Virus record (IMG/VR): IMGVR_UViG_3300029711_000132
DNA from: a virus
Lineage: Duplodnaviria; Heunggongvirae; Uroviricota; Caudoviricetes
Strand: one strand, 5' to 3'
Length of the DNA stretch: 6,231 nucleotides
A program made the position numbers and the translations under genes. This document shows, piece after piece, positions 1,463-6,231 of this stretch; within the stretch, counting starts at the first letter, position 1, and each line of letters starts with the position of its first letter. The notes beneath the pieces were generated by a model that was not told the origin of the DNA, made no database searches, and saw nothing but the letters and a program-made list of their open reading frames with translations.

Positions 1463-2163
1463 ACAGTTGCTCCTTTCAGTCCGAACTTCGCTTTGATTTC
1501 TGCGATCTTCGCCAGAGCCTGTGCACGATTTAGAGGTCTACCGCCCATGACAGGAAGTTGTTTTACTGGTTCAGGTATCGCCTCACCACGGTTAATTCGC
1601 GCGGTCATACAAGTCAGTTCATCGGCAGCCTTGCGCCGTAATTCCGCATCAGTCAGCGCATTGGCCCGCATGTTCTGATACAGGTTGGTAACCAACCAGT
1701 AGTGCGCGTTTGATTTCCATGGATAAGACTCTGCATCCGGATAAAGGCCACGCTTCCGGCAATACTCGTAAACCATATCAACCAGCTCGCTGGCGTTTGG
1801 CAGCCCGGCGTTAACGGATGCTTCTTCCCGGCACCAGGCGACAAACTGCCCGGGTGATGGCAGGAATGGTCGATTCTGCCGACGGGCTACGCGCATTCCT
1901 GCGTTAACCTGTTCCATTGTGGTGATCCCGTTTTCCCGGANNNNNNNNNNNNNNNNNNNNNNNNNNNNNNNNNNNNNNNNNNNNNNNNNNNNNNTAGCCA
2001 GGCTCGCCGGGAAAGTTGCCAGTAACTGGCTGAACACACCGTTGATGATCTGCGCTACCTGCTGTACCTGCGGCTTTTCGTCGTACTGTTCCGGCATGTT
2101 GTTGGCGATCCGGCGCATCTGCTCACGGTCAAAGTTAACCATCTGTGCGGCGATGTTTTTCAT
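1459..2163 (-). CDS. P: Replication protein P (DnaB helicase loader), lambda type
   Basis: Translation MKNIAAQMVNFDREQMRRIANNMPEQYDEKPQVQQVAQIINGVFSQLLATFPASLA...KAKFGLKGATV is essentially the lambda P sequence as I recall it. Start overlaps the O stop (ATGA). The N gap at 1941-1994 preserves frame length, but the 18-19 residues there are unknown. Confidence 0.93.
   Translation of the reverse strand: MKNIAAQMVNFDREQMRRIANNMPEQYDEKPQVQQVAQIINGVFSQLLATFPASLAXXXXXXXXXXXXXXXXXXXRENGITTMEQVNAGMRVARRQNRPFLPSPGQFVAWCREEASVNAGLPNASELVDMVYEYCRKRGLYPDAESYPWKSNAHYWLVTNLYQNMRANALTDAELRRKAADELTCMTARINRGEAIPEPVKQLPVMGGRPLNRAQALAKIAEIKAKFGLKGATV
1941..1994. other. Run of 54 N (assembly gap or masked bases) inside the P gene
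   Basis: Directly visible in the sequence. Confidence 0.99.
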
Positions 2164-3089
2164 AAATCCACCCCGTAAATCCAGTCAGTGTTTGTCAGGT
2201 CGAGTTTTGATTTTCCGGCTGTCACGCCAGCCTGTTGCTTGTTACGGTTGATTTCGAGTTGGGTCCACTTGTCGCGGAGTTTGGCCGGACTCAGCACGTT
2301 ACCTGACCAGAAGTTGTCCTGGCATGCCCAGCGGAACAGCACGCACATGTCGCGGTGGTTACGTCCGTCACGTTCACGCATCAGGCGGATATCGTTAGCC
2401 CACCCTGCAAAATTCGGTTTTCTGGCTGAGGGCGCGATGGTCTTCACCATGTCAAACATCCACTCTGCGGCGGTCAGGTCTTCTGCTGTCCCCCACTTGC
2501 TGCCGCTCTGAATTGCAGCATCCCGTTTCTCCACAGGAAAGTCGTTTTCTGGCTGGTCAGAGGATTCGCCAGAATTCTCGGACGAAAAAGGTTTTATATT
2601 GTCTTTTGTTAGTTTGTCTTTTGTGTTTACCTGATTCGGGTAAGTGCCTTTACCTGATTTGGGTAAACTTTTCTTACCTGATTCAGGTAAATTTACCTCT
2701 TTCAGGTAAACTTTATTTTTCTTACCTGATTCGGGTAATGTTGACCATTCACTGACCACATTATTAATGCCGATATTCCGCCCGCTCTGAATAAAAATCC
2801 CACGCTTTACCAGAACACTTTTTGCAGCAGAACACTTGTGCGGCAATATCCCGGTCAACTCGGAAAGTTGCTCGTTGCTCACCCAATCCAGTTTTTTATT
2901 AAAGCCATATGTTTTGCGCATGACAGCCAGGAAGACCAGAAGCTGGTGCTGTGTTAATCCGGCCAGCATCACAGCTTCCAGCAACTCATTTGCAATGCGC
3001 GTATAACCATCATCGAGATCTGCCACGCGCGGCTCCTTTTGTGCCGCATCCGGCACTGGAAAATTGAATATCTCAGCAGTGTTTGCCAT
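2160..3089 (-). CDS. O: O-family replication initiator (N-terminal iteron-binding domain, C-terminal P-recruiting domain)
   Basis: C-terminus ...KSKLDLTNTDWIYGVDL matches the lambda O C-terminus; N-terminus MANTAEIFNFPV...ADLDDGYTRIANELLEA...LRKTYGFNK aligns with lambda O MTNTAKILNFGR...ADLDDGYARLSNMLLEA. Start chosen at ATG 3089 (RBS GGGAGG 4-5 nt upstream), which aligns with the lambda O start. The longer ORF from 3179 overlaps the upstream stop as ATGA and cannot be excluded. Confidence 0.85.
   Translation of the reverse strand: MANTAEIFNFPVPDAAQKEPRVADLDDGYTRIANELLEAVMLAGLTQHQLLVFLAVMRKTYGFNKKLDWVSNEQLSELTGILPHKCSAAKSVLVKRGIFIQSGRNIGINNVVSEWSTLPESGKKNKVYLKEVNLPESGKKSLPKSGKGTYPNQVNTKDKLTKDNIKPFSSENSGESSDQPENDFPVEKRDAAIQSGSKWGTAEDLTAAEWMFDMVKTIAPSARKPNFAGWANDIRLMRERDGRNHRDMCVLFRWACQDNFWSGNVLSPAKLRDKWTQLEINRNKQQAGVTAGKSKLDLTNTDWIYGVDL
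2627..2738. repeat. Replication origin iterons: five copies of TTACC-N7-GGTAA inside O, with an adjacent AT-rich stretch (about 2585-2626)
   Basis: Copies at 2627-2643, 2650-2666, 2674-2690, 2693-2709 and 2722-2738 (e.g. TTACCTGATTCGGGTAA), each an inverted repeat. The AT-rich run GGTTTTATATTGTCTTTTGTTAGTTTGTCTTTTGTG follows on the downstream side in the direction of O transcription, as in lambda ori. The repeats encode the reiterated LPESGKK/LPKSGKG linker of O. Confidence 0.85.
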
Positions 3090-3175
3090 AATTCCTCCCG
3101 CAATGAGTGTGTTACGATTTGCACCTGAAAGTCGGTTCTGTTCCAGCAGACCGGCTTTCGCCATTTCTGAACCTG

Positions 3176-3715
3176 TCATATCGCCCCCAGCATGGTAGTA
3201 ACCATCGCCATCAATGGACCAGCCAGATCCGGGTCCACACGAAACATCGACACAATACCTTCACTCATTTCCTTCAGTTTCTGGTGGCGTGGTGCGTTGA
3301 GAATGACAGCCTGTTTTGCCTCACTGAGTTCCTTTTCCATTTCAGCCAACCTAGCCATGAAGCTATCCTGCTCAACCAGGTAACCGCGATATTCCAGCGG
3401 TAGTACCGCCAGAATTGCCGGGGTCAGTTCACGCACGTTATTTCGGTATTTTTCAGAATCGAATTTGTTATCGAGGAAGCGGAACAGCTTCTGGCGTGCA
3501 CGGCTGACATCATCAGGGAAATCGATGGTGCCGTCGCCCTGCTCCCGATACTCATTCACAATGAGTGCGGCAACGACATCCTGATTATCTACAGCCGACC
3601 AGGCGCGGACGGCATCACGGATTTTTTCGTGGCCTGGAGCTTGTTTTGTTTGAGAACGATTTATCACCGCAGTCGGAATAAATTCGCTAGTCTGTTGGTA
3701 TGTAAGTGGTTGCAT
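3176..3715 (-). CDS. YdaT-family protein in the cII position (putative lysis-lysogeny regulator)
   Basis: 179-aa ORF with strong RBS AAGGAG 6 nt upstream of the ATG at 3715, lying between cro and O where lambda has cII. No similarity to lambda CII; the segment LTPAILAVLPLEYRGYLVEQDSFMARLAE resembles what I recall of Rac/CP-933P YdaT. Family call is from memory and needs an HMM check. Confidence 0.7.
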   Translation of the reverse strand: MQPLTYQQTSEFIPTAVINRSQTKQAPGHEKIRDAVRAWSAVDNQDVVAALIVNEYREQGDGTIDFPDDVSRARQKLFRFLDNKFDSEKYRNNVRELTPAILAVLPLEYRGYLVEQDSFMARLAEMEKELSEAKQAVILNAPRHQKLKEMSEGIVSMFRVDPDLAGPLMAMVTTMLGAI

Positions 3716-3759
3716 AATTGACTCCTTTAGTTTGAATTGACTGTTAAGTTGATTGCTTA

Positions 3760-3772
3760 TTGTTAAAGAGCG
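3760..3772 (-). promoter_or_regulatory. boxA-like element (nutR position) in the cro-ydaT intergenic region
   Basis: Minus strand reads CGCTCTTTAACAA, 13 nt after the cro stop. This matches the boxA consensus (lambda CGCTCTTA; rrn TGCTCTTTAACAA) at the location where lambda carries nutR. No convincing boxB hairpin was found next to it. Confidence 0.35.
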
Positions 3773-3784
3773 TGAAATGGAAAT

Positions 3785-4015
3785 TTAAGCTGCGTTCTTT
3801 TCGGTGTGTGGAAACAACTTCGGAAGATCCGGACGAATCTGGTATGCCTTCACAACTCCACCAGTAGCCGTAACAATGCTGCCGACATGTTCAGGGGATA
3901 CCTTTGCTTTGTTGTGAAGCCACTTATAGACGGCCTGCTGTGAAACTTCGCAGGCATCGCCTAGTTTCTTTTGTGAACCAACGATATTGATCGCTGTTTT
4001 GATTGCTGGGTTCAT
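3785..4015 (-). CDS. cro: Cro-like small HTH regulator (Cro/CI-type, YdaS-like)
   Basis: 76-aa ORF transcribed divergently from the repressor gene, first gene of the early-right operon. GGAGG sits just upstream of the ATG. Sequence LGDACEVSQQAVYKWL is a helix-turn-helix signature. Confidence 0.8.
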   Translation of the reverse strand: MNPAIKTAINIVGSQKKLGDACEVSQQAVYKWLHNKAKVSPEHVGSIVTATGGVVKAYQIRPDLPKLFPHTEKNAA

Positions 4016-4119
4016 AACAACCTCCGCGGTTAATCCGAATCAAGATTAAAACTATGGTTGTTTTTAGTCAACAACCATTTTCGTTTGATGAAATAAAACC
4101 TTGGTTGTACATTTGATCT
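4016..4119. promoter_or_regulatory. OR-like divergent operator/promoter region between cro and cI
   Basis: Inverted repeat ATGGTTGTT-N7-AACAACCAT (4044-4068) plus a related half-site CTTGGTTGTACA (about 4099-4110). Candidate pR on the minus strand: -35 TTGACT (4061..4056). Candidate pRM on the plus strand: -35 TTGATG (4085-4090), 17-nt spacer, -10 TACATT (4108-4113), ending 7 nt before the cI ATG with no Shine-Dalgarno, i.e. a possibly leaderless cI mRNA as in lambda. Confidence 0.55.
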
Positions 4120-4809
4120 ATGAAAACAACACTCTCAGAAAGACTTAAAGAAGCCAGATTAGCGCGAGGCCTTACACAAAAGGCGCTTGGGGATTTGGTC
4201 GGGGTTAGCCAGGCTGCTATTCAGAAAATCGAAACAGGGAAAGCTAACCAAACAACTAAAATCGTGGAGATCGCGAACGCTTTGGGTGTACGCGCAGAAT
4301 GGTTATCTTCTGGCGTTGGAAATATGTCAGACAGTACAGTGCAACCAATACAATCAACTGTCAGCCATTCCAAATACTTCAAAATTGACGTTCTTGATAT
4401 AGAAGTCAGTGCCGGGCCAGGTGTAATCAACCGTGAGTTTGTAGAAGTTCTACGCTCGGTTGAGTACTCGTTTGACGATGCTCGTCACATGTTCGATGGC
4501 AGGAAGGCGGAAAATATCCGCATCATTAACGTGCGAGGTGACAGCATGTCAGGGACGATCGAACCAGGTGACCTGCTGTTCGTTGATATCACTGTTAAAT
4601 CTTTCGACGGTGATGGCATCTATGCGTTTCTGTACGACGACACTGCCCATGTAAAACGTCTTCAAATGATGAAGGATAAGCTGCTGGTTATCTCTGATAA
4701 CAAGAGCTACTCGCCGTGGGACCCGATCGAGAAAGACGAGATGAACCGGGTGTTCATATTCGGTAAGGTCATTGGAAGCATGCCGCAGACGTACAGGAAG
4801 CATGGTTAA
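4120..4809 (+). CDS. cI: CI-like prophage repressor (N-terminal HTH, C-terminal LexA/S24-type autocleavage domain)
   Basis: 229-aa ORF. N-terminus LTQKALGDLVGVSQAAIQKIETGK is an HTH; Ala-Gly candidate cleavage site in EVSAGPG (residues 98-99); catalytic Ser in RGDSMSGTIEPGD and Lys in AHVKRL. Divergent from cro across the operator region. Confidence 0.9.
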   Translation: MKTTLSERLKEARLARGLTQKALGDLVGVSQAAIQKIETGKANQTTKIVEIANALGVRAEWLSSGVGNMSDSTVQPIQSTVSHSKYFKIDVLDIEVSAGPGVINREFVEVLRSVEYSFDDARHMFDGRKAENIRIINVRGDSMSGTIEPGDLLFVDITVKSFDGDGIYAFLYDDTAHVKRLQMMKDKLLVISDNKSYSPWDPIEKDEMNRVFIFGKVIGSMPQTYRKHG

Positions 4810-5038: not shown

Positions 5039-5419
5039 ATGAGAAAAATCCTAATCGCTGCCATGATGGCATCTGTATTGGCTGGGTGTGCTTCTTCAGG
5101 CAACCAGCAACTCAAAAATGAAACTGAAATTAGTGTCCAGTCTAAACTTCAGGAAGGTAAAACAACCAAGAATGAGGTTAAATCTTACTTTGGTTCTCCT
5201 GATGCTGTTTCATATACTGACAGTGGAAACGAGATCTGGAAGTACGCCTTTGCAAAAGTAAAAGTGAATGGCACCACTTTTATTCCATTCTATGGATTAT
5301 TCCATAATGGAACGAACGGTACGAAAAAAGAACTTACTATTCTTTTTAACGATGACACGATTAAGAAATACACAATGTCAGAAACCCAAATAAACTCGAA
5401 ATCAGGTTGGGCTGACTGA
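5039..5419 (+). CDS. Predicted outer-membrane lipoprotein with BamE-like (SmpA/OmlA-type) domain; accessory gene in the rex position downstream of cI
   Basis: 126-aa ORF. N-terminus MRKILIAAMMASVLAGC has a lipobox (LAGC, Cys17) with Ala at +2, predicting outer-membrane sorting. Mature part EGKTTKNEVKSYFGSPDAVSYTDSGNEIWKY...KKELTILFNDDTIKKY parallels the E. coli BamE pattern GMTQQQVAYALGTPL...NTWFYVF...QQTLTLTFNSSGVL as I recall it. Weak RBS (GGAA about 8 nt upstream); strong terminator downstream. Confidence 0.8.
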   Translation: MRKILIAAMMASVLAGCASSGNQQLKNETEISVQSKLQEGKTTKNEVKSYFGSPDAVSYTDSGNEIWKYAFAKVKVNGTTFIPFYGLFHNGTNGTKKELTILFNDDTIKKYTMSETQINSKSGWAD

Positions 5420-5427
5420 TAATCATA

Positions 5428-5455
5428 CCCGGCAACCGCGCCGGGTTTTCTTTTC
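5428..5455 (+). terminator. Rho-independent terminator after the lipoprotein gene
   Basis: Hairpin CCCGGC-aaccgc-GCCGGG (5428-5445) followed by TTTTCTTTTCC, beginning 9 nt after the stop codon. Confidence 0.7.
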
Positions 5456-5565: not shown

Positions 5566-5622
5566 AAAACAACCGATAAAACAACTTTTGTTGTTGACGA
5601 TAAAACAACTATAGTTTTAAAT
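5566..5622 (+). promoter_or_regulatory. OL/pL-like operator-promoter cluster
   Basis: Three direct AAAACAAC copies (5566, 5578, 5602) and a palindrome ACAAC-TTTT-GTTGT (5581-5594) share the ACAAC/GTTGT core of the OR half-sites. Candidate promoter: -35 TTGACG (5594-5599), 17-nt spacer, -10 TTAAAT (5617-5622), pointing rightward away from cI as lambda pL does. Confidence 0.4.
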
Positions 5623-5815
5623 AAATTCATCGCAACGACACAACGATACGATAACCACCTGTTTCACCGTTGCGATGACCGCTTAGATCCGCAGTTTGAA
5701 TTTCAGCAGGCTTCGGGGAGTGCGAGGGGTGAAACGGACGCGTGAACGTCGGTGTGACCAGCTGAAATCAACTCAACATTTCATACCTTAGTCGCTTCAA
5801 CGAGGCGGCTTAGTT

Positions 5816-6100
5816 ATGACAACCGGCGGCCATCCACCGCCTGAATACGCGCAGAAGTCTTTATATGTTCAGCAGCCCAGCTTACGGGCAGGAGTTTTTA
5901 TGGTTCATCAACATTACGGAACGCAGACCGTTAATCGCGGTGCGGTCATGCCAGGAATGCTGGTCAAACGCAAAGATGGTACCTGGACTGCATCAGCTAA
6001 TTTACGCGGACGACTTTATCTGCATCGCGGCATTGAGCGCACTTATATACCCGTGACTTGCTCGTGGAAGTTTTTCTCGACGGACGCGGCAACGGTCTGA
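5816..6100 (+). CDS. Hypothetical protein (94 aa) in the position lambda uses for N; no arginine-rich motif
   Basis: Longest ORF in this interval, with a modest GAGG about 11 nt upstream. Composition is not obviously coding-like and there is no homology that I recognise; may be non-coding. Confidence 0.3.
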   Translation: MTTGGHPPPEYAQKSLYVQQPSLRAGVFMVHQHYGTQTVNRGAVMPGMLVKRKDGTWTASANLRGRLYLHRGIERTYIPVTCSWKFFSTDAATV

Positions 6101-6182: not shown

Positions 6183-6231
6183 CATGAACGCTTATTACAT
6201 TCAGGATCGTCTTGAGGCTCAGAGCTGGGCG
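6183..6231 (+). CDS. 5' end of an ORF running off the window ([16 protein letters not shown]...)
   Basis: ATG preceded by AGGAG at 7-8 nt spacing. Only 16 codons are visible; identity unknown. Confidence 0.45.

Follow-up and report, generated by a model that had tools for sequence, protein, structure and literature searches.

The spacer between cro and the ydaT-type gene of the lambda-like prophage analysed here contains what is, to judge from the match and its position, a genuine boxA, i.e., the boxA half of a nutR site, and this element stands without a boxB hairpin beside it, without an N gene and without a put RNA. Comparison with related phages gives good support for an origin of this boxA in N-dependent ancestors, from which it was passed on together with the cI-cro immunity module, and it can be regarded as an orphan nutR boxA. 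With respect to its present role, our tentative preference is for an accessory, N-independent guard that would rely on Nus factors only (as in rrn operons and CRISPR arrays) and would act against Rho at the rut-like junction of cro and ydaT; that the boxA is an inert relic of a nutR site is nearly as likely.

Organization of the immunity and early region

The window, i.e., the whole stretch of 6,231 nucleotides that was analysed, comprises the immunity and early region of a lambda-like prophage. From position 3600 to its end at 6231 it is 99% identical to Escherichia phage PhiR26_1, whose genome of 48,207 bp was used as the whole-phage reference. The - strand carries pR (TTGACT-17-TAATCT, 4043-4071, inside the operator region 4016-4119), cro (3785-4015; a YdaS/Cro-type HTH repressor of 76 aa; Pfam YdaS_toxin, 6.6e-17, and P22_Cro; PHROG transcriptional repressor), a gene for a YdaT/CII-like protein, which is the first gene past the boxA (ydaT, 3176-3715; Pfam YdaT_toxin, 1.3e-29; PHROG CII-like activator, 1.8e-66), an O gene with iterons (2160-3179), a P gene that is broken by a run of N (1459-2163), and a small Ren-like ORF that follows P in the order of pR transcription. 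The + strand carries the cI repressor gene (4120-4809; HTH and S24 peptidase domains, Pfam HTH_3 and Peptidase_S24), pL (TTGACG-17-TTAAAT, 5594-5622, with a transcript start near 5629), a gene for a KilR-like FtsZ inhibitor (kil, 5900-6100; PHROG Kil, 2e-27), and the start of gam (6183-6231; Gam is annotated at the equivalent position of PhiR26_1). Both promoters were read from the sequence, and operator-like inverted repeats (I1, I3) are common to the pR operator region and pL.

Because ydaT, O, P and the next ORF overlap successively by 4 nt, their translation is expected to be coupled, with little access for Rho. Intrinsic terminators lie downstream in both early operons, in PhiR26_1 at 11828 (+) and 2000-1986 (-); in the direction of pR (- strand), a strong hairpin of this kind (610-631; a 9-bp stem, then TTTTTTATTT) follows a moron gene. 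Transcription from pR towards Q in PhiR26_1 has to pass a 1.5-kb gene of opposite orientation, and the RNA made there would be untranslated and a likely target for Rho. Phages of the PhiR26_1 type are called viable here because the PhiR26_1 record names K-12 MG1655 as the host.

Several other features of the region were recorded. Five 22-nt iterons (TTACCTGATTCGGGTAA type, spacing 19-29 nt) lie inside O (2622-2738) in the manner of a lambda-style origin, and the run inside P consists of 54 N (1941-1994), which represent masked or unresolved sequence. Two moron-like lipoprotein genes, each with its own terminator, were found, one BamE-like in the gap between cI and pL (5039-5446) and one VasI-like downstream of P (648-1142). 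In the stretch 1-410 there is a frame on the - strand (approx. 1-343) that resembles orfA of an IS3-family transposase, followed by an apparent IS end directly downstream of the terminator at 610-631, which suggests an insertion into the nin region. The C-terminus of kil (6040-6100) is frameshifted by a 2-nt insertion (TATATACCC vs. TATACCC; the majority C-terminus is ..RTYTRDLLVEVFLDGRGNGLNH). This frameshift, the IS fragment and the run of N may together indicate that the copy in the window is a decaying prophage or contains assembly errors.

A consensus boxA in the cro-ydaT spacer

The boxA occupies positions 3772-3760 on the - strand, which is the strand of the pR transcript, cro and ydaT, and reads CGCTCTTTAACAA (CGCUCUUUAACAA on the pR transcript; also written GCTCTTTAACA). 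The stop codon of cro (TAA, 3787-3785) is separated by 12 bases from the first C of the boxA, which therefore starts at the 13th base and is located approx. 265 nt past pR. Compared with the E. coli rrn boxA (UGCUCUUUAACAA), 12 of 13 positions are identical, and there is agreement at 11 of 11 positions with GYTCTTTAANA, the functional boxA consensus of gamma-proteobacteria (PMC5725501). Its positions 2-13 are those of the high-affinity boxA of E. coli and phage 21; NusB-NusE is bound better by the E. coli boxA than by that of lambda (PMC3177189). By chance, 0.04 matches to the consensus would be expected in the window, and 6 of 200 shuffles contained at least one, and the match is the only one in the window even when two mismatches are allowed, as well as the only one in the whole of PhiR26_1 when one mismatch is allowed. 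The original prediction of a near-perfect boxA 13 nt past the cro stop, at the place of nutR, was thus confirmed. A second boxA on the pL transcript, i.e., a nutL equivalent downstream of pL, for which a search had been proposed at the same time, was found neither in the window nor in the whole of PhiR26_1.

Motifs of 11 to 13 letters do arise randomly in AT-rich spacers, and the match could in principle be an accident that has nothing to do with nut sites. However, the low expected count, the location on the right strand within 13 nt of the cro stop, and the presence of the same motif at the same place past homologous cro genes of N-bearing phages make such an accident barely credible.

The spacer itself (3716-3784, 69 nt, - strand) is unstructured, rich in C and poor in G, i.e., rut-like. 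No hairpin was found in the 45 nt upstream of the ydaT start, and the 101 nt around the boxA fold at only -5.3 kcal/mol, which is no better than shuffled sequences (z +0.36), whereas the same folding applied to the nutR of phage PA28 as a positive control gives a clear boxB hairpin. The boxB hairpin is therefore indeed missing beside this boxA, as had been claimed. The strongest excess of C over G along the 3.4-kb pR transcript lies at 3811-3734 (C-G of +0.19 compared with a mean of -0.04 and an sd of 0.085), and the whole C-rich, G-poor bubble around the boxA spans approx. 3811-3690. By analogy with lambda nutR-tR1, this bubble is where Rho would load.

The boxA ends 45 nt before the ATG of ydaT and 32 nt before its Shine-Dalgarno sequence (AAGGAG, 3727-3722). 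This falls within the 50-bp limit used by Baniulyte et al. (PMC5725501), who described how the boxA complex of suhB represses translation of the next gene and provokes Rho termination, an effect that persists with up to 100 nt of inserted spacer, and whose survey also found boxA before toxin genes. As in suhB, the boxA overlaps a pyrimidine-rich, rut-like stretch. It is therefore conceivable that a Nus complex formed here loops the RNA, blocks the ydaT start, lowers the level of YdaT and provokes Rho termination, and thereby acts as a brake on the early right operon. We regard this as improbable: if ydaT were repressed and transcription ended ahead of O and P, the pR-dependent replication genes would be throttled, and the sister phages express these genes although they have no boxA.

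Absence of N, Nun and put

In PhiR26_1, pL is followed by a leader of approx. 190 nt, kil, gam, bet and exo, and the operon continues to int without an N gene; the only annotated antiterminator of this phage is Q. Searches with tblastn using N of the 21/933W type (PA28), N of phi80 and Nun of HK022 returned no match with E<0.6 from either the window or PhiR26_1. Furthermore, pL could be located in 76 of 80 IMG/VR loci with the same cro, and all 76 carry the same N-less leader. Thus, the claim that a recognizable N gene is lacking held, and the possibility that N lies just outside the window is excluded by the PhiR26_1 map, the 76 loci and the searches with N and Nun.

Membership in the family of put RNAs (HK022 type) was also rejected. 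A covariance model was built from 24 put sequences (HK022, HK639, UPF_BP1 and IMG/VR), the alignment of which shows the expected covariation, and it scores known puts (HK022 putL and putR, the putL-like element of HK639, and both UPF_BP1 copies) at 63.7-95.6 bits. The best score in the window was 7.9 bits (E 3.8), the best in PhiR26_1 was 12.3 bits (E 0.25) inside a tail gene, and nothing was found in phage 4A7. A scan of the window with Rfam at E<=10 returned three chance-level matches only, none of them near the boxA or the leader. With respect to put itself, the putL and putR of the P22-like Salmonella phage UPF_BP1 (1457-1532, - strand, and 2737-2806, + strand) are essentially identical to those of HK022, and variants of put with compensatory changes in stem II occur in many IMG/VR contigs.

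The original prediction had also stated that no ORF with an arginine-rich, N-like motif lies to the right of pL. This requires a correction, as a small arginine-rich ORF on the + strand runs from 5696 (TTG) or 5729 (GTG) to 5791 (MKRTRERRCDQLKSTQHFIP, with the stretches ..KRTRERRCDQLK.. and ..GVKRTRERRCDQLK..); nevertheless, the ORF failed coding tests, and there is no sign of a real N-like gene. Position 5729 is polymorphic (GTG/ATG), as is position 5789 (TAG/CAG), so that 16 of 49 variants have a stop and the others an in-frame fusion to kil, which is the annotated 125-aa 'Kil' of PhiR26_1. The 49 variants show 4 synonymous and 9 non-synonymous polymorphisms, which is a neutral ratio, and the ORF matches no family in Pfam or PHROG. 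For these reasons, it was rejected as a gene for a mini-N and is probably a by-product of a GC-rich stretch, with a low residual probability of being a real gene.

Origin and distribution of the boxA

The Cro protein of the window is 58-72% identical to those of PA28, SH2026Stx1, PSTCR7lys, UPF_BP1, phiEt88 and HK639, and four different arrangements follow these related genes. In PA28 (933W-like, N-bearing), CGCTCTTTAACA is located 7 nt past the stop and is accompanied by a boxB of the phage 21 type; in SH2026Stx1 (also N-bearing), CGCTCTTTATCAA is accompanied by a P22-like boxB; and in Providencia PSTCR7lys, TGCTCTTTAATAA is followed by a hairpin, and a boxA is present at pL as well. Salmonella UPF_BP1 and Erwinia phiEt88 have putR at this place, HK639 has a bare 29-nt spacer without a boxA, and the window has a boxA alone. 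A spacer without boxA is also found in phi80 (N-bearing, with a cII of the ydaT type), in which cro and ydaT are 30 nt apart and no nutR is annotated. Since the same motif occurs at the same place past the homologous cro of N-bearing phages, the boxA of the window is the positional homologue of a nutR boxA and a part of the cI-cro module. Among more diverged relatives of this cro, none with a boxA alone was found, as all 80 IMG/VR loci are 99-100% identical.

The cro-boxA-ydaT junction is present in 1516 of 5426 complete E. coli genomes (28%), and the boxA is present in all 78 IMG/VR loci with this cro, one copy having a G-to-T change within it. The spacer is invariant in these 78 copies apart from a type with a 12-nt insertion and single variants. 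However, the boxA copies are approx. 99% identical and their flanks are equally invariant, and thus conservation cannot separate selection from recent spread or common ancestry. In sister phages with a different type of immunity (4A7, Perceval, 1W and others), cro and ydaT are separated by 30 nt that contain no boxA, but ydaT, O, P and the N-less pL leader are shared with the window. Among 32 IMG/VR loci that combine this leader with ydaT, boxA is present in 17 and absent in 15. The expectation that the boxA is conserved in related prophages therefore held for those with the same cro but not for the sister phages of other immunity. As the latter share the downstream genes and the leader, the boxA cannot be essential. 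In 4A7 (L007 3960-3990; 15 IMG/VR loci), a spacer hairpin (GCCGC-CUAAUCU-GCGGC) spans the cro stop codon, and its loop resembles the CUAAC of a boxB of the phage 21 type; this boxB-like element without a boxA is the mirror image of the arrangement in the window.

These comparisons bear directly on whether the boxA might be an inert relic, i.e., a remnant of nutR left when a replication module with ydaT replaced boxB-tR1-cII in an N-less phage; such a remnant may still bind NusB-S10, with no consequence. The four arrangements past related cro genes are typical of module shuffling, the sequence becomes homologous again to that of the sister phages of other immunity at the ribosome-binding site of ydaT (and likewise at the pL transcript start, approx. 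5629-5630), the sister phages manage without a boxA, pL has no partner boxA, and a population with 99% identity is too young for decay to have set in. However, the site agrees fully with the consensus and represents the high-affinity rrn type rather than the weaker lambda type, and the boxA is placed exactly in the rut-like stretch where it would matter. Moreover, Nus-factor binding at such sites is expected to affect Rho or translation (PMC5725501). On balance, this origin without a present function is possible and only slightly less probable than a guard against Rho.

The pL leader and the T1 module

The lineage-specific part of the pL leader (5629-5789, + strand, approx. 160 nt) contains no boxA, no put and no real ORF, and it has no match in Rfam. 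Of 5426 complete E. coli genomes, 2225 (41%) contain it at 90-99% identity, in no case with an annotation. Relatives whose pL and initial transcribed sequence (CAUCGNAAC...) are the same have nutL and N, or putL, in the slot that it fills. The leader is kept across immunity types, and the boundary of homology coincides with the transcript start.

A search for conserved RNA structure downstream of pL had been proposed with the original prediction. With the leader and the T1 hairpin included, the 211 nt at 5620-5830 reach a folding energy of -66.1 kcal/mol, which is better than that of shuffles (z -2.3). However, the 40-49 leader variants show little variation and no compensatory changes, and the RNAalifold consensus disagrees with the single-sequence fold. 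By analogy with putL and putR, a copy of the leader might be expected on the pR side, but none was found there, nor was there a second copy in PhiR26_1. Ten nucleotides of the leader (GUUUGAAUU) are complementary to the cro-ydaT spacer, but approx. 18 complementary 10-mers would occur by chance, and 4A7 does not keep this one; the lead was dropped.

Homologues of the leader were also sought in other contexts. In the Rac prophage of E. coli K-12 (L009 4406-4503), an annotated sRNA, KilS, is encoded upstream of kilR and provides a precedent for a terminated leader RNA before kil, but its sequence is unrelated to the leader, and homology was rejected. A search in other genera by means of Kil yielded 15 loci with different leaders. 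In Kluyvera, Citrobacter, Leclercia, Enterobacter, Raoultella and others (L012-L025), kil directly follows pL with a different leader, and no N is evident. These leaders contain a conserved motif 100-200 nt upstream of kil, AACGUUCCGCYRGCC(U)GGCGAYAAGG(G)CA, which could form two mutually exclusive hairpins, one of which is supported by a paired U/G insertion.

The pL leader ends with a separate module (5783-5845, + strand), the T1 module. It consists, in this order, of CAUACC, the 6-bp T1 hairpin (AGUCGC-UUCAACGAG-GCGGCU, 5790-5810), which has a conserved UUYNNNGAG loop and a covarying stem, with at least 8 fully different stems that keep the pairing, and the conserved UUAUGACAACCGGCGGCCAUCCACCG (5814-5841), which starts a mini-ORF (MTTGGHPPP) and forms a GC hairpin (GGCGG-CCAUCCA-CCGCC). 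The UUAUGACAACCGGCGGCCAUCCACCG element is identical in the window, 4A7, phi80 and HK639, and the next base alone varies (C; A in phi80). A search with the 26-mer gave at least 120 IMG/VR loci (L031-L150), all of which contain it by construction; beyond it, the ORFs vary in length (MTTGGHPPP(..EVLY*)). The module is common to N-type phages (phi80, L005 3001-3060), put-type phages (HK639, L004 3501-3552) and N-less phages, and HK639 is the only phage in which it carries a terminator annotation. Possibly, it is an attenuator of the polyproline leader-peptide kind that precedes kil and the recombination genes.

The properties of the leader raise the question of whether an unrecognised antitermination system exists in which the boxA works with a phage partner, either the pL leader RNA in a put-like manner or an arginine-rich leader peptide acting as a mini-N. 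The phages are viable and have intrinsic terminators in both early operons but neither N nor put, and the leader lies exactly where relatives with the same pL carry nutL or putL. It is common to different immunity types with its boundary at the transcript start, and the KRTRERR of the leader ORF, the start of which is GTG/ATG polymorphic, resembles the arginine-rich motifs of N proteins. Nonetheless, the leader structure is not backed by covariation and differs between RNAalifold and single-sequence folding, and the pR side has no copy of it. In the ORF for the peptide, 4 synonymous changes stand against 9 non-synonymous ones, one third of the variants contain a stop while the rest are fused to kil, and no family matches; moreover, an arginine-rich peptide would find no boxB-like hairpin beside the boxA. 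In addition, it is just as conceivable that the leader serves as an attenuator to keep toxic Kil low. Such a system is thus an unlikely explanation. Similarly doubtful is the broader proposition that, in what is the commonest lineage of lambdoid prophages in E. coli, early antitermination proceeds without any phage protein or put RNA, through the stand-alone boxA and the host rRNA antitermination complex at pR, and through the leader of approx. 160 nt as a third kind of cis-acting antiterminator at pL.

A possible role in protection against Rho

Antitermination by Nus factors only is known to counter Rho and to be poor against intrinsic terminators. A major role for the boxA is therefore not to be expected in an operon with intrinsic terminators downstream; coupled translation, the existence of sister phages without boxA and the lack of a boxA at pL likewise argue against it. 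If the boxA is active, it would be an accessory device, not the main antitermination system of the phage.

The tentatively preferred guard against Rho could operate as follows. The boxA would be transcribed 12 nt past the cro stop, where the operon is most C-rich, G-poor and unstructured. As part of the pR transcript, it would then bind NusB-S10, as is to be expected since its core matches the high-affinity rrn boxA. NusB-S10, together with NusA, NusG and SuhB, could be loaded onto RNA polymerase as a Nus-factor complex in the way this happens at rrn operons or CRISPR arrays. Without any need for N, such a complex might shield the transcript from Rho where cro meets ydaT and wherever translation is poor further along. 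We infer Nus-factor binding at this boxA, and any effect on Rho, from known examples: a stand-alone consensus boxA recruits NusB/E, NusA, NusG and SuhB and blocks Rho at rrn operons and CRISPR arrays (PMC7665894), and the recruitment of Nus factors by boxA alone is documented (PMC7665894; PMC5725501).

Comparison with known antitermination systems

The N/nut system of lambda and the put RNA of HK022 are the two textbook routes by which lambdoid phages pass early terminators. The prophage family described here has neither, yet it is widespread (the leader and the junction occur in 41% and 28% of complete E. coli genomes, respectively) and includes plaque-forming phages such as PhiR26_1, 4A7 and IdasGreatGrand. 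To our knowledge, there is no phage case of N-independent boxA use. Thus, if the lone boxA works, this would be the first phage operon known to use host Nus-factor antitermination without N, and the short list of BoxA targets other than rRNA would be extended; if it is inactive, it would illustrate cleanly how module exchange can leave half of a regulatory site behind. In both cases, the question is posed of how delayed-early genes are expressed in lambdoid phages that have neither N nor put, for which the conserved pL leader is the obvious suspect.

With the nutR sites of N-dependent lambdoid phages (lambda, 21, 933W/PA28 and P22-like phages), the window shares a boxA of the 21/rrn type (CGCUCUUUAACA) located a few bases past the stop of a homologous cro, on the pR transcript and in a rut-like context. 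Unlike these phages, it has no boxB, no N and no matching nutL, and its next gene starts 45 nt further on, so that there is no intergenic region of the tR1 type. The put RNAs of HK022 and HK639 are the protein-free solution of other N-less lambdoid phages; they are found past a related cro in UPF_BP1 and phiEt88 and are absent from the window. The boxA in the 5'UTR of suhB (PMC5725501) is comparable in that it lies within 50 nt of a start codon and overlaps a pyrimidine-rich stretch for Rho loading; however, suhB represents repression and termination of a gene for a Nus factor, whereas in the window a phage CII-like regulator is followed by replication genes. Finally, the boxA elements of rrn operons and of the CRISPR arrays of Salmonella and Vibrio, at which recruitment of Nus factors is known (PMC7665894), resemble that of the window as lone consensus boxA sequences located early in a long transcript, but there they protect long untranslated RNA, whereas the transcript of the window is mostly tightly translated phage mRNA.
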